This document shows, in pieces, positions 4,619 to 38,127 of a DNA stretch of 51,062 nt; positions within the stretch are counted from its first letter, which is position 1; each line of letters starts with the position of its first letter. This DNA is from a virus. Position numbers and translations under genes: made by a program. The stretch spans positions 1 through 51,062 of the IMG/VR virus record IMGVR_UViG_3300015192_000001; one strand, written 5' to 3'. The notes under the pieces are model-generated. The model was not told where the DNA came from. It searched no databases and worked only from the letters and a program-made list of their open reading frames with translations.

Positions 4619-5485
4619 CTATTTAAGGGCCGCGGCGTCTGCCTTGTATCCGGCAATACCAGCGGTGTTAGCGGGCTGCTTCGCGAGGAAGGCAGCTGTG
4701 TTGGGGTCAATCTTGGGACCCGTCGGCGAGAGGGTTGAGCCATTGGCGAAACCCTTGTTGAGGGTGTCTGCGCCGTATGTATTGACGTAGTTGGTGGCCT
4801 TAACCGGATTAAAGCCCATGCCCTGAAGGGATTGGTTGGCTCTCATCAGGGGATCTTTGACGACTGCCGCAGCCGCGGCATCTTGAGTTTTCTGTTGGTT
4901 ATTCGTGGCGAGGGGGTTTGCTAGAGCCGCGGAGACTGGTGTAGGCACTACTGGAGTCGGAATACCCACTGGAGGGGGGGGTTCATTTCCGAGGCCAGAA
5001 GGAACCACAGGAGCGGGTTCTATGCCCGGAGTAGGAACTGGTGGAACGACGGGGGCCGGCATAGGAGCTGGTGGAACGACTGGGGCTGGCGCCGCAGCTG
5101 CCTTCACGTCATCAAGGAGGGAGTCCGTCGTTGCTCCGCCACCTCCCGGTTCTGCGGTGGAGGTGCTGGGGAGCGAGGTAATGGGTACGTCGTGCTCTCC
5201 AGGGTGTGGATCGGCTGGCTGATCGCCTGCTTCTACCATCTGAGCTAGTTCTGGATACTTCTGGGCGAACTCTTGCGGGTGGCTCATGAGTGCATCGACG
5301 TACTGCTGCTGGTCTGGAGTAAAGATCGGCAGCAGTTTCATCATAGCCTGGATGACATCCATCGGTGGCATCTCATTGCCGAATTGACGCATGAGATTGG
5401 GATCAGCTGTGAGTGGAGAGCCGGGTTGAGGCTGGTTGGCAGCCTCGTCCCTGACGTGGGCCATTGGGTCTGTTTCGAGTGTCAC
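4619..5485 (-). CDS. Proline-rich protein of unknown function, 288 aa
   Basis: Central P-A/T-P-V-V-P repeats (APAPVVPPAPMPAPVVPPVPTPGIEPAPVVP...PTPVVPTPV) flanked by ordinary-composition ends. Lies in the head module. Confidence 0.7.
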   Translation of the reverse strand: MTLETDPMAHVRDEAANQPQPGSPLTADPNLMRQFGNEMPPMDVIQAMMKLLPIFTPDQQQYVDALMSHPQEFAQKYPELAQMVEAGDQPADPHPGEHDVPITSLPSTSTAEPGGGGATTDSLLDDVKAAAAPAPVVPPAPMPAPVVPPVPTPGIEPAPVVPSGLGNEPPPPVGIPTPVVPTPVSAALANPLATNNQQKTQDAAAAAVVKDPLMRANQSLQGMGFNPVKATNYVNTYGADTLNKGFANGSTLSPTGPKIDPNTAAFLAKQPANTAGIAGYKADAAALK

Positions 5486-5490
5486 TAGAC

Positions 5491-23832: not shown

Positions 23833-24108
23833 GTGGACGAGTACATCGAGCTGACCCCAGCAGTCATCGACCTCATGGAGGCTGGCGACTTCGCGGCCAT
23901 CGACGCCATGTTCGACAACACGCCTACCACACCCGGGGGCCTCAGCGACGCCTACCCAGACTACGAGCCGCTCGACAACCCGTTCTCACCAAAGGACGGG
24001 CACCGCTACATCCCCGACACCGGCTACGTACTCGACACCAGCGGCGAGGCCTGCGTCGTGTGCGCCGGATGGCCCGAAGAACACAAGCATTTCGCGGAGG
24101 TGAAGTAA
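23833..24108 (+). CDS. Hypothetical protein, 91 aa. First gene of the plus arm.
   Basis: GTG 7 nt after GAAGGAG. The track ORF 23719..24108 has an implausible N-terminal extension. Confidence 0.6.
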   Translation: MDEYIELTPAVIDLMEAGDFAAIDAMFDNTPTTPGGLSDAYPDYEPLDNPFSPKDGHRYIPDTGYVLDTSGEACVVCAGWPEEHKHFAEVK

Positions 24109-24530
24109 TGACGGTCCGCAACCTCAACAGCGAGAACGACGAGGTACTCACACTCCCCAACGACCTCAATGGCCTTGAGCGCATCTGCCGCAACTACCAC
24201 GCACGGCAGACAGTCGCCACCTACGAAATGACGCCAATCTTCACACCCGGTGATGGATGGCTCTGCGAATCCTGCGAAATCGAAACGTGGGTCCCCTACG
24301 GAGTCACACACACACATGGCCACAGAGCCATCTCCGTCCCCCCCACCGCCACAACTACTTTTCAGTACAAGTCGCACTCACTCGCGCGCTTCGGAGACAC
24401 CACAGCCTGCATTTCATGCGGCGCTGATGACAGATCCGACCTGTTCGAGTTCAAGCTCGATTGCGACACCCGCGCGGTTCGCATCTACCGATCGACCAAT
24501 GGCTCAGGACTCCGACGGGGTGTGGCGTGA
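24108..24530 (+). CDS. Hypothetical protein, 140 aa, with CxxC pairs
   Basis: TAATG coupling with GGAGGTGAAG as SD. Corresponds to the C-terminal part of track ORF 23778..24530. Confidence 0.65.
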   Translation: MTVRNLNSENDEVLTLPNDLNGLERICRNYHARQTVATYEMTPIFTPGDGWLCESCEIETWVPYGVTHTHGHRAISVPPTATTTFQYKSHSLARFGDTTACISCGADDRSDLFEFKLDCDTRAVRIYRSTNGSGLRRGVA

Positions 24531-24697
24531 TCGGCGCCGTTGACCCCACGGTGCGTGGATCACGGGTTCCGGCCGACTCCACCCCCGCACGGCTGCGCCC
24601 AGAGGGCGCACCGGCCGCAAGCGGCCTGCCGCACGTGGGCCCCGGAGCTCGGTCGGCGTCAGGAGAAGTAAGCAAGAAAGTGGAAGGAAACACTGAA

Positions 24698-26251
24698 ATG
24701 CCGCAAACAATCTCGTTTTGGTCGCGGGATGCCAAATGGTCTGGCCTTAGCAACTTCGCGCCAGTGACCATCGAGCACAACGGCACCATCTACCGCAGCC
24801 TTGAGCACGCCTACCTCGCATCACGCGTGGCAATCGAGCACGCTGCAGACATCGCAGCAGCGCCTACCGCACGCGATGCGAAGATCATGATGCGCGACCT
24901 ACCGCGCAACCCGCAGCCGCCGAACAAGATCACCACCATGAAAACACTGCTGCTCAAGAAATTCGCACTGGAGCCGTACCGCACGCTCCTGCTCAGCACA
25001 GGCGATACATACCTGTCCCACTACGCGCCATGGGACAGCTTCTGGGGCACAGGCAAAGATGGCAAAGGCGAGAACCGCCTCGGCCACATGCTCATGAACG
25101 TCAGGAGCGAGATCAATCCCGAAACAACCAAACCCACCGCATCAACAGATGCCACAACAAGTATTGCACTCGTAGGCTCGCGTGCGTTCGGAAAGGACCC
25201 GGCCCTGCTCAACGGCAAGGCAGCATGGACCCTCCTGACACGCATCTTCACAGGCATCGAGAAGCGGTACAGCCTCGTGAACATCGTCTCAGGTGGCGCC
25301 AACGGCGTCGACAAGATGGGCGTGTTCATGGCCAAGGATCGTGGACACACCACCACCGTCTTCCCAGCCGACTGGGACCGCCTCGGCAAGAGCGCTGGCT
25401 ACGCTCGCAACGTCACCATCGTCGAGAACTCAGACATGGTCGTAGCCATCATGGACCCCGGCTCCAAGGGCACCAGGCACACCGTCCACCTCGCTATGGA
25501 CGCACGGCTGCCCCTGCGGATCTTCAGCGCCATCGATGGCAGCGAGTACAAGTCGTGCCCCTGCGATGACAAGATCACGCACGACCGTATCAAGGCCGAG
25601 CAAACCTACCAGACAGTATCCATCGCAGGCACAGACGTCCTGATGGAAGGCGATGACGCCCGCATCCACCGCTACGACAAGCCGTACATCGATCCCGAGA
25701 CTGGTGACTTCATCGAGCCAGATGACAGCCTGCTCGGCATCGAGGTCGATGGCAACTGCCAGACCTGCGGCCGTGAGATGCCAGAGGGTGAGTGCGGCAA
25801 GTGCGCCACCGAGGTCTACGGCTTCCTCCCGGGGGACAACGCCCCAGTGGAAACGCCACAGGACCACCCAGACGTCACTGGCCACAACTACTTCATCAAG
25901 CCAGCCAAGGTGGAGTGGCAGCCAAACCCGTTCTCACGCGGCACGTTCTACAAGATCGTGAACGGTCACCGCATGTACACCGTAGACCAGGTGACCAAGG
26001 CTCGCTTCACCAAAGAGGACCTTGAGGCACAAACGATCCGCCTCAACGCTATCCCAGCAGGCGCCTTCAGCTTCGATGTCATCGCAAAGAACGCCATCAC
26101 GCGCAAGTTCCCAGTGATGCCGTTCGCACACGCAAGCCCGTTCGCCAAGGCGCAGCGCAACACGATCGTCAATCCGCCGCTTCCCCAGCTCCCGGCCACC
26201 ATGGTCGAGATGAGCAAGAAGATCGCTGACAACGCTCGGCTTTACCGCTAA
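24698..26251 (+). CDS. Three-part fusion protein, 517 aa: NADAR (YbiA-like), SLOG/DUF2493-like, and an unknown C-terminal domain with a zinc ribbon
   Basis: ATG after GGAAGGA. NADAR motifs: LSNFAPVTIEHNGTIYRSLEHAY and FWGTGKDGKGENRLGHMLM. SLOG/DUF2493 motifs: SGGANGVDKMG, FPADWDRLGKSAGYARN and GSKGTRHTV. CTD contains CQTCG...CGKC. Confidence 0.75.
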   Translation: MPQTISFWSRDAKWSGLSNFAPVTIEHNGTIYRSLEHAYLASRVAIEHAADIAAAPTARDAKIMMRDLPRNPQPPNKITTMKTLLLKKFALEPYRTLLLSTGDTYLSHYAPWDSFWGTGKDGKGENRLGHMLMNVRSEINPETTKPTASTDATTSIALVGSRAFGKDPALLNGKAAWTLLTRIFTGIEKRYSLVNIVSGGANGVDKMGVFMAKDRGHTTTVFPADWDRLGKSAGYARNVTIVENSDMVVAIMDPGSKGTRHTVHLAMDARLPLRIFSAIDGSEYKSCPCDDKITHDRIKAEQTYQTVSIAGTDVLMEGDDARIHRYDKPYIDPETGDFIEPDDSLLGIEVDGNCQTCGREMPEGECGKCATEVYGFLPGDNAPVETPQDHPDVTGHNYFIKPAKVEWQPNPFSRGTFYKIVNGHRMYTVDQVTKARFTKEDLEAQTIRLNAIPAGAFSFDVIAKNAITRKFPVMPFAHASPFAKAQRNTIVNPPLPQLPATMVEMSKKIADNARLYR

Positions 26252-26340
26252 TGAAGGTAGAAACCCTAGCAATCAGCACCTTCACAAGCGCGCTTCTCTG
26301 GATTGCCATGATCGCAATCCTTCGCACACTTGCGCAATAA
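26251..26340 (+). CDS. Small hydrophobic peptide, 29 aa (below the track cutoff)
   Basis: TAATG coupling to the NADAR-SLOG gene. Sequence MKVETLAISTFTSALLWIAMIAILRTLAQ*. Followed by an ACCGCC...GGCGGT hairpin. Confidence 0.4.
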   Translation: MKVETLAISTFTSALLWIAMIAILRTLAQ

Positions 26341-26379
26341 CAGGACCGCCCTGTCTCAGGCGGTAGAAAGAGGCCCAGC

Positions 26380-26760
26380 ATGTCCACCATCGCAAAGTTG
26401 ACCCTCATCGGTCACCTTGGTAACAACGCAGAGCTCCGCAACGTCGGCCCCGCAGACAACCTCCGCGCAGTCCTGAACTTCAGCGTCGCGACCCAGAACC
26501 GCAAGGACCAGCCCACGCTCTGGACACGGTGCTCCCTCTGGGGCAACCGCGCCGAATCCCTCGCGCAGTACATGACGAAGGGCACGCTCGTCATGGTCGA
26601 TGCCATCCCGCTGCCCCCGAAGGTCTTCCGTCGTGCCGACGGGACCTACGACACTTCCCTCGAGGCCATCGCGAACGACGTCGTACTGCTCAGCAGCCAG
26701 AACACCATCGAGCCCAGTGCTGCGGCAGTTGAGGTGACGGAGGTCGCGATCCCGTTCTAA
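26380..26760 (+). CDS. ssb: Single-stranded DNA-binding protein, 126 aa
   Basis: OB-fold SSB pattern (KLTLIGHLGNNAELR..., LWTRCSLWGNRAE, KGTLVMVDA) and a C-terminal ...EVAIPF tip. Confidence 0.8.
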   Translation: MSTIAKLTLIGHLGNNAELRNVGPADNLRAVLNFSVATQNRKDQPTLWTRCSLWGNRAESLAQYMTKGTLVMVDAIPLPPKVFRRADGTYDTSLEAIANDVVLLSSQNTIEPSAAAVEVTEVAIPF

Positions 26761-27300
26761 CCAAACTGCCCGGACCAAGATGAGCCACCGGGCACCCGCT
26801 TCGTGGAAGCGGGAAGTCCTACGTCGGGTGGGCCTCCTTCCCCTATCTGCCGCAGGACCTCCCGCTTCTACGTGAGGTGAACACATGCGATGACCTGAAT
26901 AGCGATCCAGTACAACGCTTGACACAGAATTCCTAAGACCCCACAGGGGTCTGCCGCCCGGTCACAGGCAAGCGAAGCCCCCGGTAATGTCGGGTTCGGG
27001 CCTCTCCTGCGTCCTACTCCAGAGCCGTTAGAACAGCCGGTATCCCCATAGGGACGAGGTAAAACTCGCTATCCGGCAAAGGTGTGTCCGCGACCGTAAT
27101 GGACGGACGAGCCGCTGACCATATGGGCTCATCAACCAAGTGGTCTCCCCGCTGCTCGGATTCAGCAGCAGTAATGAGCTCCGACTTGCAGGGCTCGCCC
27201 AACTCCCGGGTTGGGCTCGTGGTTTCAGAAGCAGATTGTACTGCTGGTGAAGCCACGAGCCTAGCCCAGGCGCCACCGGCACGCCATCGCCGGACCAACT

Positions 27301-27335
27301 TTGGACATTCGCAATATCCAACATTTGACATTCGC
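27301..27335 (+). repeat. Direct repeat TT(G/T)GACATTCGCA x2, 22 bp apart, upstream of gene 27372
   Basis: ttggacattcgcaatatccaacatttgacattcgcac. The second copy contains TTGACA. Confidence 0.6.
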
Positions 27336-27371
27336 ACAAACTTCGTCCAAGATTCAGGAGAACAGGAAATC

Positions 27372-27752
27372 ATGCCGAAGAAACCAGCCTATAACGACGA
27401 AGACGCAAAAGACGTAGAAACAACCATCCACGACACATCCTGCTGCGCAATCTCCGACGCCGAAGGCATCGGATCAGTCAAATCCACCGCCGACGCACAC
27501 AACCTACGACGCCGTGCATTCCTTGGCGCCAACAGTGGCTACATCTTCGCAACCTGCGTCATGCCAGAACACAAGGCACAAGTCACACACCTCAAGCGAG
27601 GAGGATGGAAGCAGCTAGCGACGATCAAGAACCCCAACACATGCAAAACCATCGTGCTCATGGGAGCCCACACCTACACGGCAAAACGTCAGCAGAAACC
27701 CACCGAATACAACTACTACGACGACACATACGACTACGGCCACAACTACTAG
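27372..27752 (+). CDS. Hypothetical protein, 126 aa. CC-motif family, paralogous to 29660..30130.
   Basis: ATG after CAGGAGAACAGGA. The pattern CC ... GY-x-[FL]A ... GW/AW ... N-x2-T-x3-V-L is shared with the 156-aa ORF. Tyr/Asp-rich tail. Confidence 0.6.
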   Translation: MPKKPAYNDEDAKDVETTIHDTSCCAISDAEGIGSVKSTADAHNLRRRAFLGANSGYIFATCVMPEHKAQVTHLKRGGWKQLATIKNPNTCKTIVLMGAHTYTAKRQQKPTEYNYYDDTYDYGHNY

Positions 27753-27888
27753 CCGCGACCGCATGCGCCAGAGAGCCTCGTTCGGACGTGAGATTCCATG
27801 GTCAACAACGTCTGCGGGCAATTAGGGGCCTCACTCATGGTCACAGCCCCTGTCTCTGGCGCAGCCGATCACGGCTAGGAGAACATCA

Positions 27889-28155
27889 ATGACCTACGAC
27901 CCACTCACCGCAACAGGTTTCCAAGACTTCGCAACGAAGTACTACCAAGAACAAGACCACAGCTTCTCAAGGTCAGCGTACGACCTGTCACTCGCTAGTC
28001 GGATGTGCTCAGCGGCCGGATGGCACCCCGACGACTGCTATGTCTACGAAGACGACAAGTTCATCACCGTCGTGCAGATCGACAAGCAAGAAGTCCGCAT
28101 GCAGGCCAAAGACGTCCACAAGACACGACTTGACGACTTAGGAGTTGCACCATGA
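27889..28155 (+). CDS. Hypothetical protein, 88 aa
   Basis: ATG after TAGGAGAAC. Compact ORF. Confidence 0.65.
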   Translation: MTYDPLTATGFQDFATKYYQEQDHSFSRSAYDLSLASRMCSAAGWHPDDCYVYEDDKFITVVQIDKQEVRMQAKDVHKTRLDDLGVAP

Positions 28156-28394
28156 CCAGAACCGAGGTCCTGCTCAGGGATCGCAAACACGGCATCGCCT
28201 TCCTCAAGAACGACCAAGGAAAGATCATCCTCGCCTGCGCTTCCTACGGAAAGTCAAAGCTAATCGCTATCCCACTCAGCCAGGCAGAAGGACTAAGTCT
28301 GCTGAGTGCAGCACAGGCCACGTTCGTTCCCCCGCCCCACTACGAAAACTGGCTCGAAACGCTCATTCGGCTCATGAAAGGAGACAGGCAGTGA
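28152..28394 (+). CDS. Hypothetical protein, 80 aa
   Basis: ATGA coupling upstream and GTGA coupling downstream. Confidence 0.65.
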   Translation: MTRTEVLLRDRKHGIAFLKNDQGKIILACASYGKSKLIAIPLSQAEGLSLLSAAQATFVPPPHYENWLETLIRLMKGDRQ

Positions 28395-29491
28395 CACAAC
28401 TCGGCACCGATCCGGAGTTCTTCATCTTCGACAAGGATGACAAGCCGGTCCCCGCACACACCCTCGGATTCCCAACCAAAGAAAACAAGCTCAAATCAGA
28501 AGACATCGTTGGCGTCTTCGAGCAATACGCCACTCTCTTCCGAGACGGCTACGCGATCGAAGCCAACGTCACATACGCACCATCCTGCCGAGCCATGCTG
28601 GCAACACACATCCGATCAGCCGTACGCGCCATGCGTGCCAAGGTCGGACCGAACTATCACATCGGCACAGAAGCCGCCGTTCGCATCCGGCTTCGTACCC
28701 AGATGCGTGGAGCACCAGACGATGTCTCACACTTCGGATGCGAGCCATCATTCGACGGCTATCGCAATGGTGCAGCCAAGGTAGTCGACATCGACGCCTT
28801 CACCCACAGCTATCGCTATGCCGGAGGACACATGCACTTCGGCACTTTCAACAACAAGTCAGCACTCTACCGTCAAGCCGCAAAAGACGACAACTCCGAA
28901 GCATTGCAAGACCCGACCAACTTCCCACTCATGGCCAAGATCTTCGACCTACTCGTCGGACTGCCTCTCACCATCATCTATGACGACAGCAAGCAGTTTC
29001 TCCGTCGTCGTCACTACGGTCAGGCTGGCGAGTACCGACCACAGATCTACCCAGGCGAACGAGTGGGCTTCGAGTACCGCACACCCCCCCCGCAGCTATG
29101 GAACCACCACGCCATCGCCGGACTGTTCTTTGGCGTAGGCAAGTGGATCGTGAACAACTACGCCACCCTAGCCGAAGACTGGAACCCCAACATCGAGCAG
29201 GATCTGCAGCGTGCCATCAACCATGGCACCCGCGGACAGAACCTCCTGCAGAGCGTTCCAGGGTTCTATACCCCAGAGACAATCCTGTCTCTCAAGGGTG
29301 TCAAGGAAATCAAATCGCTCTTCCTTCCGGACTACACCGGCAGCACCGATTCGGGATGGATCGAGTTCGCCGAGCTCTGGGGCCTAAAGAAGACCATCCC
29401 GGAGCCCAACTTCAAGCGAAGCTACACCTCAGCACCATACGCACCCACCGCACGTCCCAAGTTCAGCTTCATTGCGGCCAAAGCCGCATGA
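28391..29491 (+). CDS. Carboxylate-amine (COOH-NH2) ligase, 366 aa, phage phiEco32-like type 2, in the GCS/GS-like superfamily
   Basis: GTG start (GTGA overlap, GGAGACAGG as SD). Motifs: LGTDPEFFIF, FGCEPSFDG, AGGHMHFG, GQAGEYRPQ and GFEYRTPP. The first about 80 aa of the track ORF overlap two other genes. Confidence 0.7.
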   Translation: MTQLGTDPEFFIFDKDDKPVPAHTLGFPTKENKLKSEDIVGVFEQYATLFRDGYAIEANVTYAPSCRAMLATHIRSAVRAMRAKVGPNYHIGTEAAVRIRLRTQMRGAPDDVSHFGCEPSFDGYRNGAAKVVDIDAFTHSYRYAGGHMHFGTFNNKSALYRQAAKDDNSEALQDPTNFPLMAKIFDLLVGLPLTIIYDDSKQFLRRRHYGQAGEYRPQIYPGERVGFEYRTPPPQLWNHHAIAGLFFGVGKWIVNNYATLAEDWNPNIEQDLQRAINHGTRGQNLLQSVPGFYTPETILSLKGVKEIKSLFLPDYTGSTDSGWIEFAELWGLKKTIPEPNFKRSYTSAPYAPTARPKFSFIAAKAA

Positions 29492-29646
29492 AACACTGGG
29501 GACTGATCCAATTCGAGATCTTCAACATCAGCTTCGGTCTTCTGTTCTACGGACACGGACAGCGACCGAAGGGCACGCCAGTCAGGAAGATCTGGATGTT
29601 CCATCCATTCTTCTATCGCTACCACCACTACTGCGACAACAGCTAG
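29488..29646 (+). CDS. Small aromatic-rich protein, 52 aa (below the track cutoff as its own gene)
   Basis: ATGA coupling to the ligase stop. Sequence MKHWGLIQFEIFNISFGLLFYGHGQRPKGTPVRKIWMFHPFFYRYHHYCDNS*. Confidence 0.45.
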   Translation: MKHWGLIQFEIFNISFGLLFYGHGQRPKGTPVRKIWMFHPFFYRYHHYCDNS

Positions 29647-29659
29647 AGAGGAAAAGAAC

Positions 29660-30130
29660 ATGGGTGTCATTCACAACCAGGGAATCGGACAAGCACTGGC
29701 ACAGTCAGCACCAGCTGGCTACTACATCGTGCCAGAATTCCAAGACAACAAAGCAACAGATCGATACTTCTTGAGAACCAAGAAGAACGGCGACAACTGG
29801 GCCACCTTCAAGGCAGAGACGCTACCAGGATGCTGCGGCGTCGCAGTTCTGTCACACGTCAACGTGTACTACTACGAAAAAGCTGCCGAGATCGCCAGAC
29901 GCAACAAGGTCATCGTCGATATGTTCGTTACTGCTGCTAAGAAGCGCGGTTACGGACTCGCGATGGCAACCCAGAAGGCCACGTCAGCGGCGCTCCCAGC
30001 GTACGACGCATGGGAACACGGACAGCCATTCAACAACGGCAAAACGGACAACGACGTTTTGCTTCTAAAGCTCGATCTCAAGCAGCCCAAGAGAACACCT
30101 GTCAAATACATCGAAACAGGCGGCGAGTAG
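29660..30130 (+). CDS. Hypothetical protein, 156 aa, CC-motif family, with a Pup-type C-terminus ...KYIETGGE
   Basis: ATG after GAGAGGAAAAG. C-terminal codons read directly: cct gtc aaa tac atc gaa aca ggc ggc gag tag. Confidence 0.65.
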   Translation: MGVIHNQGIGQALAQSAPAGYYIVPEFQDNKATDRYFLRTKKNGDNWATFKAETLPGCCGVAVLSHVNVYYYEKAAEIARRNKVIVDMFVTAAKKRGYGLAMATQKATSAALPAYDAWEHGQPFNNGKTDNDVLLLKLDLKQPKRTPVKYIETGGE

Positions 30131-30352
30131 CAATAAGGGGTGAGGCATAGGCCTCACGTGCTGGGGTAGAGGACGGGACCCCTAGCGATGTAGCTCTGGC
30201 AGAAAACACATCCAGTGTTCCAGAGCAAGGGTGCGGTTAAATCGTCTTGCGGTCTCAAAGTGCATTTGGGTTACCCCCAAACAGGCGTCGAGACATATTA
30301 AGGCGCAAGGGACAACCGTAAATCGGTGGAACCAGAGGCCACCAGCCCACTA

Positions 30353-30483
30353 GCTTGTCGGTAGTTCAACGAGATGCCTGCCCAAACGGCTAACGGTTCC
30401 ATCCCGGAAACCCAGAGGGTCAGTACTAATCGGATGCCAGAACACCCGCAAGGACATGGAGGTCGGAATCCTCCCCGACAAGC
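30353..30483 (+). ncRNA. Candidate structured RNA with a tRNA-like acceptor/T-arm module (not a canonical tRNA)
   Basis: 9-bp terminal helix GCTTGTCGG/CCGACAAGC. It abuts a GGAGG-TCGGAAT-CCTCC hairpin exactly as the acceptor and T stems do in a tRNA. UA follows the 5' strand. The interior is about 40 nt too long and no D-arm is found. Confidence 0.3.
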
Positions 30484-30557
30484 TTCTCATCTGCCGAGAC
30501 ATGGCAGAGGACTGACGGGCCTTACCCGTCAACCACTTCGCATACCGAAGGAGCACC

Positions 30558-32225
30558 ATGGCTCTGCATTTCGAGCACCAACCTCCCACCATCATGACCC
30601 TCAAAAAGCCCAAAAAGACCAGCAAAAAGCGTACTTGGGCCATTCCGATCATGTTCGGCAGCACACCCATGCTGCGTCGCTGTCCCAACTGCGACAGAAC
30701 CAGATCCACCACCCACGTCGTCGGATTCTGCGCTGAATGCGAAAGCTGCGTTGCCTGCGGCGCTGCGCCATGGATAGATCGCGACACACGACTCTGCGCC
30801 AACTGCGTATGCCAAACATGTGGCGGCACTAATGCGCCCATGGGTCGTGATGAGGATGGCGACACTGCATGCGGCACCTGTCGCAAGGTCGTCATCTGCA
30901 CGATCTGCTCACGCAACTTTGCTAACTGCCTGAGGAAAGGCGAACAAACACCAACCCAGTGCTACGAGTGCGCCGGACGATCCAAGATGCGCTGCTACTT
31001 CTGCAACGGCAAAGCCAGCAAGATCATGGGAAACGATTCACGAGCCAACCGCAAGTACTACCTCGTCTGCGCCATCTGTCACAACACCTTCTGCTGCTGG
31101 CGCAAAGACTGCATCCCAACCAAACAGTGCGGCGGATGCACCGACAGGCAGCACGAGCAAGAGCAAGCAGACACCAATCCCACACCTCGTTGGAACAACC
31201 CGTTCGGCAACTGGGTCAACAATCCGATCAAGTTCTGGGATGCCACACCAATCACTAGCCGCAAGATCAATCGATCACCCCGAATGCTCGGCATCGAAAT
31301 CGAATGCGCAGGCGCCACAAACGTCACACTCAAAACCAAAGCAGAACTGTACCGAGTGCTCAAAAAGTGGGGCGCCAGCATGGTGTACGACGGCTCACTG
31401 CGCAGCGGCGGATTCGAGATCACCACATCCCCCGCTGCAGGCGACGTCTTCCTCAAGCAGATCGACGAGATCACCGACGCCCTGCGAGCCGCAGGCGCAT
31501 TTGTCGACGAGCAATGCGGTCTCCACGTACACATCGACGCACGAGACCACCACTACGCCGACATCCGCAAGCTCGTGCGCTACTACGCCTTCCTCGAGCC
31601 AGCACTCATCCGTACCCAGCCATTCGATCGCATCCTTCGCCCCAACCCGAACAACGGCAAGTACTACTGCCTACCATGCGGAGAGAAGTACCTAACAGGC
31701 CTCGGTGACACAAGCGCTGAGACCGTCTCCAAGATGTACACCGACATCACTCGAGAGAAACTTCTGAGCAACATCTATGGCACAGACACATGGCGCCCAC
31801 CCAGGAGGGAGCACTACACCCAGGCCAAGTACCACGCATTCAACTTCCACTCATGGTTCTACAAGAACCGACGCACAGTCGAATCCAGGATACACGCAGG
31901 CACAATCGTCCCCAGAAAGATCAAAGACTGGGGCATGCTCTGGGCCAGCATCGTCGATGAGGCCTACCGGATGACAGACAAGGTCATCCCGGTCCCCGGA
32001 CCAGTCGACGACAGCATCGCGCAGCTCAAGCGCGTAGCACCAACCCCACGTATCAAGACCTACATCCAGACACGACTGGATACCTTCCGCAAGAAGTACG
32101 ACGACTACTACGCCACGCAACCTGCAACTTCCATACCCAACAACCCATTCTTCGAAGAAACATTCGAAGCAGAAATTCAAGACCCACCTGAAGACCACGA
32201 CAACTACGAAGAAGAGGACTTTTAA
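30558..32225 (+). CDS. Amidoligase_2-family (GS-like) ligase, 555 aa, with a long N-terminal multi-CxxC zinc-ribbon array
   Basis: ATG after GAAGGAG. 26 Cys, including 11 CxxC pairs, in residues 42-194. Ligase motifs: MLGIEIECAG, YDGSLRSGGFEITTSP, CGLHVHIDA. Acidic tail ...EDHDNYEEEDF. Confidence 0.7.
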   Translation: MALHFEHQPPTIMTLKKPKKTSKKRTWAIPIMFGSTPMLRRCPNCDRTRSTTHVVGFCAECESCVACGAAPWIDRDTRLCANCVCQTCGGTNAPMGRDEDGDTACGTCRKVVICTICSRNFANCLRKGEQTPTQCYECAGRSKMRCYFCNGKASKIMGNDSRANRKYYLVCAICHNTFCCWRKDCIPTKQCGGCTDRQHEQEQADTNPTPRWNNPFGNWVNNPIKFWDATPITSRKINRSPRMLGIEIECAGATNVTLKTKAELYRVLKKWGASMVYDGSLRSGGFEITTSPAAGDVFLKQIDEITDALRAAGAFVDEQCGLHVHIDARDHHYADIRKLVRYYAFLEPALIRTQPFDRILRPNPNNGKYYCLPCGEKYLTGLGDTSAETVSKMYTDITREKLLSNIYGTDTWRPPRREHYTQAKYHAFNFHSWFYKNRRTVESRIHAGTIVPRKIKDWGMLWASIVDEAYRMTDKVIPVPGPVDDSIAQLKRVAPTPRIKTYIQTRLDTFRKKYDDYYATQPATSIPNNPFFEETFEAEIQDPPEDHDNYEEEDF

Positions 32226-32227
32226 AC

Positions 32228-33535
32228 ATGTGCGGACAATTCGGCGTGCAATGGCGAGAGCGACCAGGCGGAGCCAACATCCCGCTCTTCGCCGTACTTG
32301 AGGTCCTCATGGACGACCGCGGTGGTCACTCATGGGGATTCTGGGCCGACGGGGTAGTCCGCAAGGGACTGGGCCGCATCACAGAATCGATCCCAGCCAG
32401 AACATTGGGCGGAGTCAAAACACTCATCGCCCACACCCGCCTCGCCACCACAGGCAAGATCTGCGAGAGCAACTCCCACCCTTTTGAGATGGGAAAGATC
32501 GTCGGCACACACAACGGAATGATCTACAACCACGAGGATCTCGCACGGCACTACGACCGCAAGTTCGAAGTCGATTCCATGCACATCTTCGCCCATCTTG
32601 ACGAAGGCCAAGACCTTCAGGAGCTGCGAGGCTATGGTTCAGCAGTCTGGCTACACACCGACGACCTGAACACCATCAACTTCGTACGCTGGAACAGCGG
32701 AGACCTAGCCATCGCCGAGATCTACAGCAAAGACAAGAAGCTGCTGGGCACTGCATGGGCCTCAACTCCAGAAGCACTCGTCCCAGCCATCGAAACCACA
32801 GGACTCGTCGATCGCCTCATCAAGGTCGATGAAGAGCGCCATTACTACACCAAAAACGCCGAAGTCTTCGCAGAGAACGAAAAGAGCATGAAGTTCGGCT
32901 TCGGTTCAAAGGGCGCATCCACCTTCAGCTCTCACGCAGACAAGATCGGTGGCGAATGGGTCAAAAACGTCTGGACTGCCTATGAAAATGGAGTCCTGCC
33001 AGCCCCCAAGCCGGTGCAGATCTACTCGGGCTTCAGACACAAGCAGAAGCCAACACCCATCGAAGTCCGAGACACACTCGCAAAGCAGGGCCTCAAAGCG
33101 ATCCAGCGGCCGGGTGGCGTCACCATCAAGAACAAATCCCAGTTCGAAGAATGGCCCAAAGACACCCTCACACAAAGTCGCAAGTGCATGAACTGCGATC
33201 TTGCCAACATGAAGACAGTCCGGCACCCCGAGATCGGCGTAGCGCTCTGCTACGACTGCACCAAAGTCACCGATTCCTACGATGACGCTGGACTCCCAAT
33301 CATCGTGCCCAACACCACAGAACACGGCATCGCCCTAGTCGCCAACCTACAAGATGTCGTCACCCTCCAAGATGCCATCAAATACGAAGGCATCGACGAA
33401 GACACACTAGACCCAGACGAAGTCGCCCTACTGGAGTGGATGCGCGAAGGACGCCGTCCCGAAAGCGGCACGCTCTACATCCCAAACAACGAAGAGATCG
33501 AGTTCCCACCCCGAGATTGGGTCGGCATGATCTAG
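32228..33535 (+). CDS. Class II (Ntn-type) glutamine amidotransferase-like protein, 435 aa, with a C-terminal zinc ribbon
   Basis: Met-Cys start (MCGQFG). Motifs: IAHTRLATTG, NSHPF, GTHNGMIYNHEDL. C-terminus contains CMNCD...CYDC. Confidence 0.7.
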   Translation: MCGQFGVQWRERPGGANIPLFAVLEVLMDDRGGHSWGFWADGVVRKGLGRITESIPARTLGGVKTLIAHTRLATTGKICESNSHPFEMGKIVGTHNGMIYNHEDLARHYDRKFEVDSMHIFAHLDEGQDLQELRGYGSAVWLHTDDLNTINFVRWNSGDLAIAEIYSKDKKLLGTAWASTPEALVPAIETTGLVDRLIKVDEERHYYTKNAEVFAENEKSMKFGFGSKGASTFSSHADKIGGEWVKNVWTAYENGVLPAPKPVQIYSGFRHKQKPTPIEVRDTLAKQGLKAIQRPGGVTIKNKSQFEEWPKDTLTQSRKCMNCDLANMKTVRHPEIGVALCYDCTKVTDSYDDAGLPIIVPNTTEHGIALVANLQDVVTLQDAIKYEGIDEDTLDPDEVALLEWMREGRRPESGTLYIPNNEEIEFPPRDWVGMI

Positions 33536-33772
33536 ATGTATCAGATCATTGAGATCCGCATCGCCGTTGACGGAACTGAAGACCGTATCCGAGACCGGAT
33601 TCAGAACAAAGGACAAGAGATCACCCGAAGCCTAGAGACCAATCTCGTAGGCCACGGATTCATTCCACTGCGTCTCATGGGCGCCAACAGCATCATCCCC
33701 AGAATCCGTATCAAGAGTACACACCAAGAACCAGAGCAACTCAGCATCGGACTGAGAGGAGACGAACCATGA
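33536..33772 (+). CDS. Hypothetical protein, 78 aa
   Basis: TAGATG junction upstream and ATGA downstream. Confidence 0.6.
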   Translation: MYQIIEIRIAVDGTEDRIRDRIQNKGQEITRSLETNLVGHGFIPLRLMGANSIIPRIRIKSTHQEPEQLSIGLRGDEP

Positions 33773-34227
33773 GATGCGACAAACGCGTCGGCAGCCTCCG
33801 TTGTCCACAAACAGCAATGGCCGGATTCGTACGGTGCTCGGCACACGTCGCACAGTACCAAAACGAAGGCAGCAACATCGAAGCCCTGCGTGCCACACCA
33901 ACACAAGCCGCAACCCTAGCAACCAACACCTGGACCATGAACCCAACAATGCACTTCGACACCACACAAGCCTTCCATGACATGGATGCAGCCACTGCCG
34001 CTGTAATAGCTGGCTTGGGCCTCCCACCCACCGAAGCACCAGCCAAGAAGGAAGTCACCAAGGTCGTCGACCCAGAGTGTCTGGCACGAGTCATCGCACA
34101 GCTCGATATGCCGAAAGACGACAAGCTCAAGCTCGCCATGGAATTCGCAGAAGCCCTCGTCGAAATGAAGCCAATCAAGTTCAACCGAGACAGCTTCATC
34201 CAACACATCCAGGAGAAGATCGCATGA
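33769..34227 (+). CDS. Hypothetical protein, 152 aa, with a Cys/His-rich N-terminus
   Basis: ATGA coupling at both ends. N-terminus is MRCDKRVGSLRCPQTAMAGFVRCSAH. Confidence 0.6.
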   Translation: MRCDKRVGSLRCPQTAMAGFVRCSAHVAQYQNEGSNIEALRATPTQAATLATNTWTMNPTMHFDTTQAFHDMDAATAAVIAGLGLPPTEAPAKKEVTKVVDPECLARVIAQLDMPKDDKLKLAMEFAEALVEMKPIKFNRDSFIQHIQEKIA

Positions 34228-34337
34228 ACGAGCTCACCGCAGAAGACATCGAACTGCTAGATGGCATCGACCCCGACGATGACGACGACGCCATCTTTCT
34301 CGAACAGTTCTACCTCAAGGGAGGCACCGGAGAGTGA
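34224..34337 (+). CDS. Pup-like small acidic peptide, 37 aa, ending KGGTGE
   Basis: ATG at 34224 after AGGAGAAG, with ATGA overlap. Codons read directly give MNELTAEDIELLDGIDPDDDDDAIFLEQFYLKGGTGE*. Its stop overlaps the next GTG (GTGA). Confidence 0.6.
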   Translation: MNELTAEDIELLDGIDPDDDDDAIFLEQFYLKGGTGE

Positions 34338-35086
34338 AGACGCTCGTCAAGCGGCGGGTGCTCGTCGCCGTAGCCAAGGTAGCGGCGACTCGCCCCGCGG
34401 TTGAGATCCAGCCATATGACGGACCGGCCGCCAACTACATCCAGTTGACGGGCGTCCCCCTCACCATGGCCATTCTCAACGATGAGTACAAGGAGCTCAT
34501 GTCGCCAGTCATGTGCAAGGACTACATCACCGATGCCTTCTGGTCCGAACACAGCAAGAAGCCAATTTCCATCTACGGCTTCAACTGGACATCGGGAACA
34601 ATAGACCCCAGCAAGGTCGTCTATCGCATCGGACTCAAGTTCGGCAACGACGACGATGCCCAAAAGACAACCAACGTCATCGACCTCATCAACCTTTGGG
34701 ACAAAGCACTTGGCTTCAAACCAAGCCAGCTCCTAAAGACCAACGACATCAAGAACCGTGTCCTTGAAGTCGATCGCGCATGGACCGAGCAGCCAATCCG
34801 CATCAGCCTTCTCACCCTCATGCTTCGCATGGGCACCGCCTACACCCCCGGAGAGGGGCTCGAGGCATTCCTCAACAACACCAAGACCAACATAAACACC
34901 GGGAAGAAAGGCCTACGCGCACTCATCCACAGTGGTGACGGCATGCATGTCGCCCAGGCCCAGAACCTCATCCTGAAGATCTACAAGGAGGGAAAGTTCC
35001 CCGCGCAGACCTACGCACAATACAAAAGCCACAGCGAAATCCACAACCGAAGCGGCATCGTCTCAATGGCAGGGAGCAGTAAGTGA
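34334..35086 (+). CDS. Hypothetical protein, 250 aa, lying between the Pup-like peptide gene and the ATP-grasp gene
   Basis: GTG start. Its SD AAGGGAGG is encoded by the KGG codons of the upstream peptide. No motif recognised. Confidence 0.65.
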   Translation: MKTLVKRRVLVAVAKVAATRPAVEIQPYDGPAANYIQLTGVPLTMAILNDEYKELMSPVMCKDYITDAFWSEHSKKPISIYGFNWTSGTIDPSKVVYRIGLKFGNDDDAQKTTNVIDLINLWDKALGFKPSQLLKTNDIKNRVLEVDRAWTEQPIRISLLTLMLRMGTAYTPGEGLEAFLNNTKTNINTGKKGLRALIHSGDGMHVAQAQNLILKIYKEGKFPAQTYAQYKSHSEIHNRSGIVSMAGSSK

Positions 35087-35838
35087 TCGACCTCGTCGTA
35101 GCCTCAGCAGCCAAGACCACCGGACGCTACCTCAGAACAGCCCTCTCTACACTCAATGTAGGGGTCGGTGCAAGCACCAAGCGTGTGAGCTACGGCGTAC
35201 CGCTGCATGTTCCTCATGGCTCCTCGGCCCTCAACGCCAACGCAGGTCGGCTCGACAAGTTCGAGCAGATGAAGAAGCTTAACTCTGCGGGAATCACCGT
35301 GCCCCTGTTCTGGCTTCCAGGACAGACGCCGTCTAAGTTCCCGCTTCTCGCGAGAAAGAGGCATCACAAGGGAGGTACCGACATCATGCCCGTCTTCATG
35401 GCAGAGGAGATGTCATGGCGCGTCCTCGCAGGTGCTGAATTCTTCGTGGAGTACATCCCGTGGCAGGCGGAGTATCGCACATGGATATTCCGCTCAGCTC
35501 ACCTGGGGACCGATCGCAAAGTCCTGACGAACCCGAGTCAGTACAAGAAGATCGGATGCAACGCAAAGAACGGGTTCACGTTCCAGACCGTCCACCAAGA
35601 CGATGTCCCAAGGGCAGCCGTCGAAGCCGCCATGAGGTCAATCCACACACTTGACCTTGACTTCGGCGCAGTAGACATTCTTCTTGGCAAGGACAGTCGA
35701 TACTACGTGCTTGAGGTAAACACGGCCCCCGGGGTCGAGAGCGCAGAGCGCAGGCTACTCCGCTCCCTCGCACAGAAGATCGCCAACTGGAACGCCAACC
35801 CGGTCGAACGTCGCAAAACCTACACACCGACCATCTAA
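35083..35838 (+). CDS. ATP-grasp (RimK-like) amide ligase, 251 aa
   Basis: Motifs: DKFEQMKKLNSAGITVP, RKRHHKGGTD, EYRTWIF and LDLDFGAVDILLGKDSRYYVLEVNTAPG. Confidence 0.7.
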   Translation: MIDLVVASAAKTTGRYLRTALSTLNVGVGASTKRVSYGVPLHVPHGSSALNANAGRLDKFEQMKKLNSAGITVPLFWLPGQTPSKFPLLARKRHHKGGTDIMPVFMAEEMSWRVLAGAEFFVEYIPWQAEYRTWIFRSAHLGTDRKVLTNPSQYKKIGCNAKNGFTFQTVHQDDVPRAAVEAAMRSIHTLDLDFGAVDILLGKDSRYYVLEVNTAPGVESAERRLLRSLAQKIANWNANPVERRKTYTPTI

Positions 35839-35902
35839 ATCATGCTACCACACAAGCATAGTCATGATATCATTCGGAGCAGACTCGATAAGGAGAATGC
35901 TC

Positions 35903-36355
35903 ATGCCAAAGGTTCTGAAGATCTCCTTGCTGGAACAAATCTTGGGCAAGACTCAAACAGAGGAACTGTTGAAGAAAGCTGGGAGTCTGACGGAGACGGC
36001 TGGGAGAACTATTACGGCGGATACGGTCCAGGCTACCAAGCGGTATCTCGAGTGGCTTGCAACCCACGGCCAAAAGCCAGCTTCGTATACGCCGAAGCAA
36101 AGAAGACAGGACCGGATCGCATGGCAGAGAGTAGCGGAGCGGATGCTAATGTCCAACGCCCCGGCTCAACGCCTTATGGCTACGTACCTGAAAGCGGGGA
36201 CGACGACAGCGAATACTGACGTCGCCATACCGTGCCCTAAATGCGGTGTGCCACAACTCGTCCACGGCCTCGACATCCATCTCAGCAGGACGCACGGCAT
36301 AAGAGGCCCGCATTACGGCAAGGGTAAAAAGAGCAGTGGAGCCCAATCACGCTAG
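35903..36355 (+). CDS. Hypothetical protein, 150 aa, with a C-terminal C2H2-like zinc finger
   Basis: ATG 7 nt after AAGGAG. Finger sequence is CPKCGVPQLVHGLDIHLSRTH. The stop lies within TAGCTAGCTAA, which stops all three frames. Confidence 0.55.
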   Translation: MPKVLKISLLEQILGKTQTEELLKKAGSLTETAGRTITADTVQATKRYLEWLATHGQKPASYTPKQRRQDRIAWQRVAERMLMSNAPAQRLMATYLKAGTTTANTDVAIPCPKCGVPQLVHGLDIHLSRTHGIRGPHYGKGKKSSGAQSR

Positions 36356-36504
36356 CTAGCTAAAGTACTAACCCGGCGATATAGCCATACCTGAACCGCA
36401 GCGTCGCTGCACTGAAGGTTTGTTGCTTGCCGTAACGCACTTCAGTATGGAATAGCGGCCGGGCTTGGCTGGGAGGCGATCTCCCCAGCACACAGCTCAG
36501 TCTC

Positions 36505-36577
36505 ACGGGGCAATCGTTCAGCGGCAGGACCCTGGGTTGTGAACCCGGCAAGGCAGGTCCAACTCCTGCGTGCCCCT
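36505..36577 (+). promoter_or_regulatory. Structured 5' leader candidate: nested helices with a GNRA-capped hairpin, ending 5 nt before an SD
   Basis: Outer helix ACGGGGCA/TGCCCCT. Inner helix GGACC/GGTCC. Hairpin CTGGGTT-GTGA-AACCCGG. Then cagAAAGGActtccaATG. Confidence 0.35.
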
Positions 36578-36592
36578 CAGAAAGGACTTCCA

Positions 36593-36739
36593 ATGTCTTA
36601 CCTCACCGGTCTTTCCGATCGCCTAATGGACATCGCCTACCACACCAAGAACCAGTACGAAAGCGAGACAATCCAAGAGGCAGCAGAAGCAATCAAGAAA
36701 CTCGACCCAATAAAGCCAAAGGGCTTCCACAAACAGTGA
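36593..36739 (+). CDS. Small protein, 48 aa
   Basis: ATG after AAAGGA. The track ORF 36539..36739 has an unlikely upstream extension. Confidence 0.5.
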   Translation: MSYLTGLSDRLMDIAYHTKNQYESETIQEAAEAIKKLDPIKPKGFHKQ

Positions 36740-37158
36740 GCAAGATCTACGTCATCGGATCACTCCGCAATCCTGAGATCCCCACAGTCGCCAAAACCTT
36801 GAGAGAGGCAGGCTACGAAGTCTTCGATGACTGGTACGCCGCAGGCCCGATCGCTGACGACTCGTGGCAGGCCTACGAAAAGGCCAGGGGACGCAACTAC
36901 CAGGAAGCCCTGCAAGGCTATGCAGCCAATCACGTCTACGCATTCGACTACAGCCACCTTGTCACGTCAGACATAGCCGTGCTGGTCACCCCAGCAGGCA
37001 AGTCAGGACATCTCGAATTCGGATACTTCAAGGGACTCGGGCGACCCGGCTACATCCTGCTAGACAAGGAACCAGATCGCTGGGACGTCATGTACAAATT
37101 CGCAACCGGCGTCGTCTTCAGTATGGACGAGCTGATGCAGAAACTAGGAAATCAGTAG
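36736..37158 (+). CDS. Nucleoside 2-deoxyribosyltransferase-like protein, 140 aa
   Basis: GTGA coupling. KIYVIGSL N-terminal strand. Motif SDIAVLVTPAGKSGHLEFGYFKGLGRPGYIL. Confidence 0.55.
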   Translation: MSKIYVIGSLRNPEIPTVAKTLREAGYEVFDDWYAAGPIADDSWQAYEKARGRNYQEALQGYAANHVYAFDYSHLVTSDIAVLVTPAGKSGHLEFGYFKGLGRPGYILLDKEPDRWDVMYKFATGVVFSMDELMQKLGNQ

Positions 37159-37275
37159 ATGAGCGGTGTTCGCGTCCTATGGGTCATTCGGTTCTTCCGT
37201 TGGTACATCGCAGCAGGTGCGAACGGAAGCGGGTACACACGGATAATCGCTGGTCGCAACAGGGGGGCGAAGTGA
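37159..37275 (+). CDS. Small ORF, 38 aa
   Basis: TAGATG junction. Sequence MSGVRVLWVIRFFRWYIAAGANGSGYTRIIAGRNRGAK*. Confidence 0.35.
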   Translation: MSGVRVLWVIRFFRWYIAAGANGSGYTRIIAGRNRGAK

Positions 37276-37403
37276 GACACCGACACCGCTACGGAAACTC
37301 GGTACACCTCGAATGGCTCCATGACTGGCGGGAGTTGCTGCGCTGCCCCTGCGGGATGCTCTGGATACGAGCGGCTCTCAACAAGGAGACGAAGTGCAAG
37401 TAA
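37272..37403 (+). CDS. Small ORF, 43 aa, ending ...WIRAALNKETKCK
   Basis: GTGA junction after GGGGGGCGAA. Corresponds to the tail of track ORF 36864..37403. Confidence 0.35.
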   Translation: MRHRHRYGNSVHLEWLHDWRELLRCPCGMLWIRAALNKETKCK

Positions 37404-37495
37404 TCGGAATCGGCGTTCTCATCGGACTGGTCATTGTCGCCGCCGTGTGGCTCGTCGCGGACATCCGGGCGGCTCTCAACAAGGAGGCGAAGTAG
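37394..37495 (+). CDS. Small membrane peptide, 33 aa, ending ...DIRAALNKEAK
   Basis: GTG after AAGGAGACGAA. Sequence VQVIGIGVLIGLVIVAAVWLVADIRAALNKEAK*. Confidence 0.4.
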   Translation: MQVIGIGVLIGLVIVAAVWLVADIRAALNKEAK

Positions 37496-37690
37496 ATGAG
37501 CGACCCCGCTCGGTGCGAATGCGGCCATGTCGAGTCTGACCATCGCAGCATCCCGCCCTATTACTGCCAGTCGGGACTGCTTGTGGGCAACCCCTGCGAG
37601 TGCCCCGTGTTCATCGAGGAGAACGCCGACAGGCTCAACGCCGAGTACGAAGCCCAGAAGGCTGACGACAATCGGGAGGCCATGCGATGA
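37496..37690 (+). CDS. Hypothetical Cys/His-rich protein, 64 aa
   Basis: TAGATG junction after AAGGAGGCGAAG. Confidence 0.6.
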   Translation: MSDPARCECGHVESDHRSIPPYYCQSGLLVGNPCECPVFIEENADRLNAEYEAQKADDNREAMR

Positions 37691-38127
37691 CCGACCCGAC
37701 ACTCCCTGAGCGACTGGAAGCGCACTCCGATTTGCTGGTCAGTATCACCGGATGGCCGAACGAGAACCGCTACAAGGCCGGCGAACTGCTCAGCGAAGCC
37801 GCCGCCGCACTGCGGCAGTTGGAGCAGGAGCGGAACGAGGAGCAGTCCGGTCGAAACTCAGCCGAGGCCAATGGCGTCATTCTCCGCGCTGATAACGCCA
37901 ATCTCACCGCTCGCATCACCGAGCTGGAAGGGGCGCTCCTCGCGTCGCCAAAGGGTGTCACAAGTCGCGCCATCCAAGAACTGGACGACGAACTGACATA
38001 CGCGGACGCTGCCCTCGACGCCTCAAGCGAGCCGAAGGAGTGTCCGATCAGGCCCATGACCGACAACGAGAAGGCGTGGGTGGAACGGGCGACAATCCGC
38101 CTCCACCCGAATCGGAAGGCGAAGTGA
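37687..38127 (+). CDS. Hypothetical coiled-coil protein, 146 aa
   Basis: ATGA coupling upstream and GTGA downstream. Confidence 0.6.
   Translation: MTDPTLPERLEAHSDLLVSITGWPNENRYKAGELLSEAAAALRQLEQERNEEQSGRNSAEANGVILRADNANLTARITELEGALLASPKGVTSRAIQELDDELTYADAALDASSEPKECPIRPMTDNEKAWVERATIRLHPNRKAK

Follow-up and report, generated by a model that had tools for sequence, protein, structure and literature searches.

We analysed a gene carried by a virus (IMG/VR record IMGVR_UViG_3300015192_000001), whose full stretch of 51,062 nucleotides (nt) is referred to here as the window. The gene, an open reading frame (ORF) of 156 amino acids (aa) at 29660..30130 on the + strand, is the founding example, in this window, of a family of GNAT-fold proteins that lack the coenzyme A (CoA)-binding loop, end in a glutamate-terminated tail and are tied to an uncharacterised cassette of phage ligases. 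The ORF starts with ATG, with a GAGAGGA Shine-Dalgarno sequence in front of it, and ends ...PVKYIETGGE before a TAG stop codon (30128-30130); this terminus, reported in a preliminary description of the window made from the sequence alone, was borne out by direct reading. Of the window's 633 ORFs with 30 aa or more, no other ends in GG[EQ]. Four segments of the protein are referred to below: the N-terminus M-G-V-I-H (29660..29674); the L-P-G-C-C-G motif (residues 55-60, 29822..29839), a loop just ahead of the central beta-strand; the N-G-K-T motif (residues 126-129, 30035..30046), a turn preceding the last strand; and the C-terminal tail (residues 140-156, LKQPKRTPVKYIETGGE, 30077..30127), a Pro/Lys/Arg-rich linker with the end T-G-G-E. 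The protein gave no match in Pfam (E <= 0.1), PHROG, NCBIfam or PADLOC, and neither megablast with the region nor tblastn with the protein found a match among 50,697 phage records.

A word-indexed homolog search with the 156-aa protein alone returned only the protein itself, and an exhaustive HMMER search gave the family. The latter yielded 60 representatives at 50% identity, nearly all of 140-170 aa and all from metagenomic or viral assemblies. Two of them are labelled 'hypothetical protein' and a distant one 'GNAT superfamily N-acetyltransferase'; the rest are nameless. A single-protein scan of genome collections found no relative, and a two-motif degenerate DNA pattern run against genome collections returned seven chance matches, none backed by tblastn. 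That this is a phage protein family previously unannotated and undescribed is well supported. After the ORFs of 13 viral loci, 15 metagenomic loci and several encoding contigs were added, the census held 83 non-identical members. We measured tail length from the N-x-K-T anchor and compared 58 tail-bearing with 19 tail-less members, two groups into which the census falls cleanly.

In the tail-bearing group 24-29 residues follow N-x-K-T, and in the tail-less group fewer than 20, typically 11, ending '...NL'. Tail-bearing members terminate in Glu (45/58) or Asp (7/58), giving an acidic end in 52/58, and 31/58 end in -GE; none of the 19 tail-less members ends in Glu or in -GE, and two end in Asp. 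The C-terminal consensus of the tailed group is [T/F]-x-G-E behind a Pro/Lys/Arg-rich linker whose sequences are highly diverged. Gly occupies position -2 in 33/58, T (24 members) and F (13) recur at position -4, and frequent endings are TEGE, FNGE, TASE and FDGE. The G-G-E ending of the window protein is also found in loci L019 and L007 and in proteins P0012 and P0020, and Gly at -3, the position that makes up the 'GG' of Pup, is present in 6/58. As judged from these alignments, a terminal Glu on a tail of fixed length is the hallmark of the family, and the Pup-specific GG is not conserved.

The two groups differ at two further places. The tailed N-terminus follows the consensus M-[G/S]-A-x-H, with Gly2 in 46/53, Ser2 in 7/53 and His5 in 50/53 members; the conservation of this M-[GS]-x-x-H start also corroborates the ATG assigned to the window gene. 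The consensus is not found in the tail-less relatives, whose N-terminus varies. Motif A of GNAT enzymes (R/Q-x-x-G-x-G/A) was found in 14 of the 19 tail-less members, with three near-matches in addition, and in one of the 58 tailed members, where it is a false positive; the window protein has no motif A. Relative to the tail-less proteins, and with good support, the tailed group has acquired both a defined start, M-G-x-x-H, and a tail of constant length that ends in Glu. Two motifs are conserved in both groups. In an alignment of 51 sequences that includes tail-less members, Cys58 of the LPGCCG loop is invariant and Pro56, Gly57, Cys59 and Gly60 are at least 90% conserved; Asn126 is invariant, and Lys128 and Thr129 are at least 90% conserved.

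The structure predicted by AlphaFold2 (AF2) from the 51-sequence alignment had a mean predicted local distance difference test (pLDDT) score of 93.3 and a predicted template modelling score of 0.87. Residues 3-139 run from an N-terminal helix through four antiparallel strands to a long helix, and on through a strand and a short helix to two further strands; the LPGCCG loop lies between the strands at 46-54 and 61-69. The tail was modelled as coil, and its pLDDT is ~92 for residues 141-150 and ~70 for the last six. A Foldseek search of the PDB with the model gave 156 matches at E <= 0.001; among the 50 matches listed, nearly all were GNAT acyltransferases (RimI, AAC(6'), Nat subunits), with probability 1.0 and TM-scores of ~0.5. 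Foldseek against BFVD likewise gave viral GNATs with probability 1.0. The family profile found no match among PDB sequences. Three distant tail-less members of the 51-sequence alignment, which carry a K-G-[LI]-G motif A, match Pfam Acetyltransf_1. The family thus has the GNAT fold, with distant members that bear motif A and match GNAT Pfam models, but its core members have neither motif A, which lies between beta4 and alpha3, nor a match to GNAT hidden Markov models, and they add the conserved Cys-Cys loop and the Glu-ended tail. Since the predicted fold is confident and its structural matches are GNATs, the protein is a degenerate GNAT domain and not a disordered, Pup-like tag; the model supports well a compact domain that has lost the CoA pyrophosphate-binding loop.

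The gene stands among ligases. A COOH-NH2 ligase of the phiEco32 type (PF14395; 28400..29491; Pfam E = 1.5e-12, PHROG 3815 E = 1e-18; start uncertain) ends 168 nt upstream of it. Downstream follow an Amidoligase_2 gene (PF12224; 30558..32225; Pfam E = 1.2e-21, PHROG 2443 E = 2.5e-24), a class-II, N-terminal nucleophile (Ntn)-type glutamine amidotransferase (GATase) that starts with MCG (32228..33535; Pfam GATase_6 E = 4.1e-10, with weak NCBIfam matches to glmS, purF and asnB) and a RimK-like ATP-grasp ligase (35083..35838; Pfam RimK E = 2e-5, 24.7 bits against a cutoff of 21). All four lie on the + strand, within 28400-35838. The ATP-grasp protein matches the 'S6 glutaminyl transferase' genes of phages PA11, CW02 and Asterion, has homologs in L008, L011, L016-L019 and L034, and among PDB sequences matches Ddl and, weakly, RimK. 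The COOH-NH2 ligase has no sequence relative in the PDB, and a scan of viral contigs with this ligase as a single protein gave no pattern match. The families PF14395 and PF12224 of the phage amidoligase cassette reportedly go back to Iyer et al. in 2009. The gene set of the window matches those of PA11, CW02, Asterion and the LUZ24-like phages, which carry such a ligase cassette (PMC3890496). That the 156-aa protein is a component of an amidoligase cassette of the phiEco32/LUZ24/PA11 type is well supported.

The same association was found across the family. Wherever the flanking sequence of a tailed member is long enough, a COOH-NH2 ligase gene lies within 3.2 kb, and the usual place of the family in the cassette is beside that ligase. 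The ligase adjoins the tailed gene in L004 (ligase 53% identical) and in L019, where the tailed protein ends TETGGE and an ATP-grasp gene lies upstream; it is 0.3 kb downstream in L007 and L021 and 3.1 kb downstream in L006. It lies upstream in L024 (0.6 kb), in L034 and L035 (1.7 kb, with an R2K ATP-grasp gene downstream of the tailed gene) and in L028 (2.5 kb). ATP-grasp, GATase or Amidoligase_2 genes share cassettes with the tailed members. Tail-less members are likewise found within such cassettes, in L008, L010, L011, L013, L016, L017, L018 and L030.

We propose, as a plausible but still tentative reading, that a cassette ligase uses the terminal Glu as its carboxylate substrate, by a chemistry analogous to that of the pairs Pup-PafA, LysW-LysX and S6-RimK. 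The proposal follows from these precedents and from the position of the gene beside exactly such enzymes. The tail would present its terminal Glu to an ATP-dependent carboxylate-amine ligase of the cassette, most likely the adjacent COOH-NH2 ligase (28400..29491), which would turn the carboxyl of the Glu into an acyl-phosphate and then link it to an amine. Candidates for the amine are an amino acid, ammonia derived from the GATase and a protein amino group. The 156-aa protein would thereby serve as a carrier or a tag, offering a carboxyl handle borne on a protein, without being a member of the Pup, LysW or S6 families.

Among the precedents, LysW ends in -EDWGE and is loaded by LysX, a RimK-family enzyme, and the ATP-grasp ligase RimK extends the folded protein S6 by further residues at its C-terminal Glu. 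Pup is small and intrinsically disordered and is conjugated through a C-terminal Glu after GG (PMC3511204). The conjugating enzyme, PafA, is a relative of the carboxylate-amine ligase/glutamine synthetase superfamily (PMC3511204, PMC2588565). The window protein resembles this pair in its free C-terminal Glu after Gly and in the ligase of a PafA-related superfamily next door (PF14395), and the chemistry proposed for it would be the same, an acyl-phosphate on the terminal Glu followed by an amide. It differs in that Pup is ~64 aa long, disordered and invariant in its GG[QE] end, whereas the window protein is a folded GNAT domain of 156 aa from a family ending in [T/F]-x-G-E. In the carrier systems of LysW and other amino-group carrier proteins (AmCP), a RimK-family ATP-grasp enzyme such as LysX or ArgX ligates an amino acid to the C-terminal -G-E, and pathway enzymes then act on the tethered substrate (PMC11726168). 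The window cassette resembles these systems in holding a RimK-like ATP-grasp ligase, along with several further enzymes. A -GE end occurs in 31/58 tailed members, with preceding residues that differ from those of LysW, and may serve as an attachment point. LysW, however, is an acidic zinc ribbon of ~54 aa; the window protein has a GNAT fold with a basic, proline-rich linker and no Cys4 zinc ribbon, its nearest neighbour is a ligase of the glutamine-synthetase type and not an ATP-grasp enzyme, and no set of kinase, reductase or aminotransferase genes could be recognised in the window. The comparison with RimK and S6 is favoured by the score of the ATP-grasp protein above the Pfam RimK cutoff and by the annotation of its PA11 and CW02 homologs; the window protein is nevertheless unrelated to S6, and the ATP-grasp gene is 5 kb away in the window and missing from some contexts.

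Several observations weigh against the terminal Glu as a ligase substrate. The cassettes of the cultured phages PA11, CW02 and Asterion do without any member of the family and have, between ligase and amidoligase, an unrelated protein of ~190 aa with no terminal Glu. Because tail-less relatives share the same cassettes, the GNAT domain should have a role that is independent of the tail. A crude tree of the ligases (unweighted pair group method with arithmetic mean) did not sort by the type of GNAT protein and gave no signal of co-evolution. The high pLDDT of residues 141-150 in the model suggests that the tail is docked on the domain and not free.

The significance of the family lies in its association with this cassette, which has been recognised since 2009 and is widespread, occurring in phiEco32-, LUZ24- and PA11-like phages and in many marine and soil viruses. 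Its function is still called unknown (PMC10580990), and its substrate and product are described in the same way (PMC10580990, PMC3890496). The Glu-tailed family is a concrete candidate for its protein substrate or carrier. If the tail is a ligation handle, it would be a third version of the C-terminal glutamate handle after Pup and LysW, independently evolved and borne by a folded protein, and the GNAT domain would have been repurposed from an enzyme to a carrier or tag.

An intramolecular role of the tail is the main alternative, somewhat unlikely though one to be taken seriously. The tail would fold into the cleft vacated by the CoA-binding loop and take the place of CoA, and its terminal carboxylate or Glu side chain would serve, in the active site of the protein itself, as a catalytic base or a pseudo-substrate. 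N-myristoyltransferase, an enzyme of GNAT fold, uses its own C-terminal carboxylate in catalysis, and by comparison with it the protein would be an acyl- or aminoacyl-transferase with a donor other than CoA, such as an acyl-phosphate or acyl-adenylate from the neighbouring ligases. Acquisition of the tail goes exactly with loss of motif A, and the fixed length of 24-29 residues is what a molecular ruler would require. The docking suggested by the pLDDT of residues 141-150 points in the same direction, as do two features of the sequences: the Cys-Cys pair is kept in both subgroups, suggesting that catalysis may have been retained, and the tail-less relatives found in the same cassettes carry motif A and resemble functional GNATs. 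The last six residues, however, which include the Glu, reach a pLDDT of only ~70, and the conserved N-terminal M-G-x-x-H is not explained by an intramolecular role alone. Such a role is also compatible with modification by a ligase, so that the two readings are not mutually exclusive.

A more ambitious version of the ligase-substrate proposal, which we regard as improbable, makes the tailed GNAT protein the transferable unit of a phage protein-conjugation system whose parts have not been seen in this combination before, with its Glu activated by the adjacent glutamine-synthetase-type ligase. The activated carboxyl would be held as a thioester on the protein's own Cys-Cys loop, in a relay like that of E1 and E2 enzymes, or joined directly to an amine. 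Acceptors could be protein lysines, of the host or the phage, or the conserved Gly at the N-terminus of a second copy. If true, phages would have an analogue of pupylation that uses a folded protein, and the amidoligase cassette would have a function.

The preliminary description had read the terminus as a Pup-type GGE handle, by which the protein could be conjugated to targets or act as an adaptor or decoy. That it is a substrate, adaptor or decoy for the PafA/Pup-proteasome system of the host we consider very unlikely. This reading has in its favour the G-G-E ending, shared with the four other members named above, and the joining of Pup via a Glu after GG (PMC3511204). The Gly at -3 that distinguishes a Pup-type end is nevertheless confined to 6/58 tailed members, the protein is predicted to be folded, and it matched neither the Pup family (PF05639) in Pfam nor any NCBIfam model. 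Among the window ORFs scanned there was no gene for PafA, Dop, Mpa or the proteasome. Neither the 586-aa protein of the structural arm (691-2451) nor DnaB nor the lysin-like protein gave an informative host signal, and there was no actinobacterial signal. With the phage's own ligases right beside the gene, these are its likely partners, and not a host PafA. Of the checks that had been suggested, the comparison of homologs upheld the terminal residue (45/58 E, 7/58 D) and not the GG before it, and structure prediction returned a folded GNAT domain, against a Pup-like nature. What survives is the idea of a ligation handle, reasonable in view of a conserved terminal Glu beside a ligase of a PafA-related superfamily; the likeness to Pup does not.

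A purely nucleotide-level origin of the terminus is the least probable alternative, with hardly any weight left to it. Here GGN-GAR would be an embedded Shine-Dalgarno sequence of a coupled downstream gene, and the tail would have no function as protein. The next gene does start -4 to +3 nt from the stop codon in 7/12 tailed members with DNA, and the terminal codons form GGAG-like strings in several, e.g. L019, L023 and L025. Among 131 tightly coupled genes of the same loci that do not belong to the family, however, the last residue is E in only 6.1% and E or D in 9.2%, and GE forms the end of 0.8%, as against 90% acidic and 53% GE ends in the family, a comparison whose binomial P-values overstate significance, since the family members are related, although their linkers have diverged strongly. 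The -GE end is also kept where no gene abuts, in L006, in L022 and in the window, whose next ORF is at least 243 nt away, and the Gly codon is mostly GGC, which breaks the GGAG core. Because these observations contradict a nucleotide artefact, the constraint on the terminus acts at the protein level. An embedded signal would, moreover, leave the T/F at -4, the fixed tail length and the link with motif-A loss unexplained. As a cause of the -GE end, the embedded Shine-Dalgarno sequence is largely refuted by the 131 matched control genes.

A second gene of the window, orf126 (27372..27752, + strand, 126 aa), had been described as a paralog. It contains CC, an E-G-I-G remnant of motif A, GYxFAT, GW and NPNT, and its tail is Tyr/Asp-rich with no terminal Glu; the shared motifs and the nature of this tail had been described correctly. 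Pairwise BLASTP between orf126 and the 156-aa protein was not significant (E = 5.2). With the family HMM, orf126 was second-best among the 570 stop-to-stop segments of the window (E = 0.023), and by BLAST it matches the same GNAT-like genes in L008 and L030 as the 156-aa protein does. When the family was compared by hhalign with orf126 plus one homolog, the two aligned colinearly over 84 columns that reach from the CC as far as the last strand (E = 7.7e-5, probability 62%); adding a bridging protein from L030 raised the probability to 95.5%. In the joint alignment, E-G-I-G lines up with motif A, and orf126 is 24-30% identical to several tail-less members that bear motif A and ~15% to tailed ones. 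An AF2 model places residues 39-101 as the alpha3-beta5-alpha4-beta6-beta7 half of a GNAT domain (pLDDT 76-92), a weakly supported assignment, as all Foldseek E-values were at least 0.08 and the input alignment held GNAT-like sequences, which makes it partly circular. The N-terminal half of the GNAT domain is missing. The homolog, P0074, is 62% identical and lies in contig L036, which is syntenic with the window in the order single-stranded DNA-binding protein (SSB), orf126-like gene, two small ORFs and ligase. Thus, orf126 is a distant paralog that belongs to the motif-A type and is truncated at its N-terminus: the gene and the homology are real, and the relationship is remote.

A similar pairing was observed in L030 (7788-8641), where directly behind a full-length tail-less GNAT gene with motif A comes a shorter copy of 99 aa, its N-terminal part missing and its start close to LPGCCG. 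The window shows the mirror of this pair in its truncated and full-length genes, and the Amidoligase_2 and GATase of L030 match those of the window at E = 2e-33 and 1e-30. Two long members, P0007 (1660 aa) and P0008 (363 aa), match residues ~21-91 of the 156-aa protein in 6-7 separate stretches each, which points either to tandem repetition of the domain's N-terminal half or to an artefact of composition.

The 156-aa ORF had also been placed between the COOH-NH2 ligase gene and a candidate tRNA-like RNA. The ligase is indeed directly upstream; the RNA found no support. The gap of 427 nt downstream (30131..30557), which has no long ORF, gave nothing with ARAGORN or Rfam (at the gathering threshold or E <= 10) beyond a spurious 21-nt snoRNA match. 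Its minimum free energy of folding has a z-score of -2.0, and its DNA is not conserved in related loci. The sole tRNA of the window is a tRNA-His at 36507-36578. A perfect 7-bp hairpin (GTGAGGC-ATAG-GCCTCAC, 30140-30157) lies 9 nt past the stop codon of the 156-aa ORF and is not followed by a T-run.

The window is an entire JGI metagenomic contig, and its layout is phage-like. On the - strand there are large genes with no Pfam match (0.7-22 kb), followed by an early or metabolic arm on the + strand (23.7-39.9 kb) and, again on the - strand (40-51 kb), by DnaB, a primase, a tyrosine integrase and the lysin-like gene. The sign of the compositional skew tracks the direction of transcription across the window: in the + arm (24000-38000) the AT skew is +0.20 to +0.32 and the GC skew -0.10 to -0.16, with the opposite sign in the - arms. 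The + arm includes a NADAR+SLOG protein, a YspA-like fusion (24692-26251, + strand), and an SSB (26380-26760, + strand). The SLOG part of the former is 47% identical to a gene at 7063-7470 in L012, L014 and L015, which lies just upstream of a tail-less GNAT-like gene.

Within the cassette, the Amidoligase_2 protein has an N-terminal extension of ~240 aa (30558-31280) that is rich in Cys pairs, many of them CxxC; it has no family match and may be a multi-zinc-finger module. Two further genes on the + strand, orf152 (33769-34227) and orf250a (34334..35086), lie ahead of the ATP-grasp gene. The latter has no Pfam match, and its homolog in L008 (E = 6e-23) is also beside an ATP-grasp gene. Between them, on the same strand, a 37-aa peptide is encoded (34224..34337; MNELTAEDIELLDGIDPDDDDDAIFLEQFYLKGGTGE), which is very acidic and ends FYLKGGTGE. 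It is coupled to both flanking genes: its ATG overlaps the stop codon of orf152 (ATGA), an AGGAG Shine-Dalgarno sequence precedes it, and its end overlaps the GTG start of orf250a (GTGA). The other 'Pup-like' ORF of the preliminary description (34077-34337) most likely starts at this ATG at 34224. The peptide resembles Pup or LysW far more than the 156-aa protein does. It gave no family match and no ortholog in the other loci, and small acidic peptides ending in -GE are not a general feature of the other cassettes examined.

Small proteins of another kind were observed in the cassettes of Salinivibrio phage CW02 (L002, 2-7801) and Klebsiella phage Asterion (L003, 3539-10218). Each contains ~8 interspersed paralogous genes for proteins of 59-97 aa with an N-terminal F-K-x-G-[DQ] and near-identical ends, ...LLEENV in CW02 and ...LENK in Asterion. 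These proteins could be ligase substrates, or their shared ending could be a DNA signal.

Two observations concern the immediate neighbours of tailed genes. In L019, a GATase-type gene (MCGLTGW..., 2771 onward) begins 1 nt past the stop codon of the tailed gene, and in L034 the gene right after it (10501-11496, 331 aa) starts MCVIML... and has no Pfam match. A Met-Cys gene after the tailed GNAT gene in two unrelated loci hints at a coupled amidotransferase or hydrolase of the Ntn type. In L027, a soil contig, a Ro60/TROVE and vWA protein (4766-6385; Pfam E = 4e-60) is encoded directly upstream of the tailed member.

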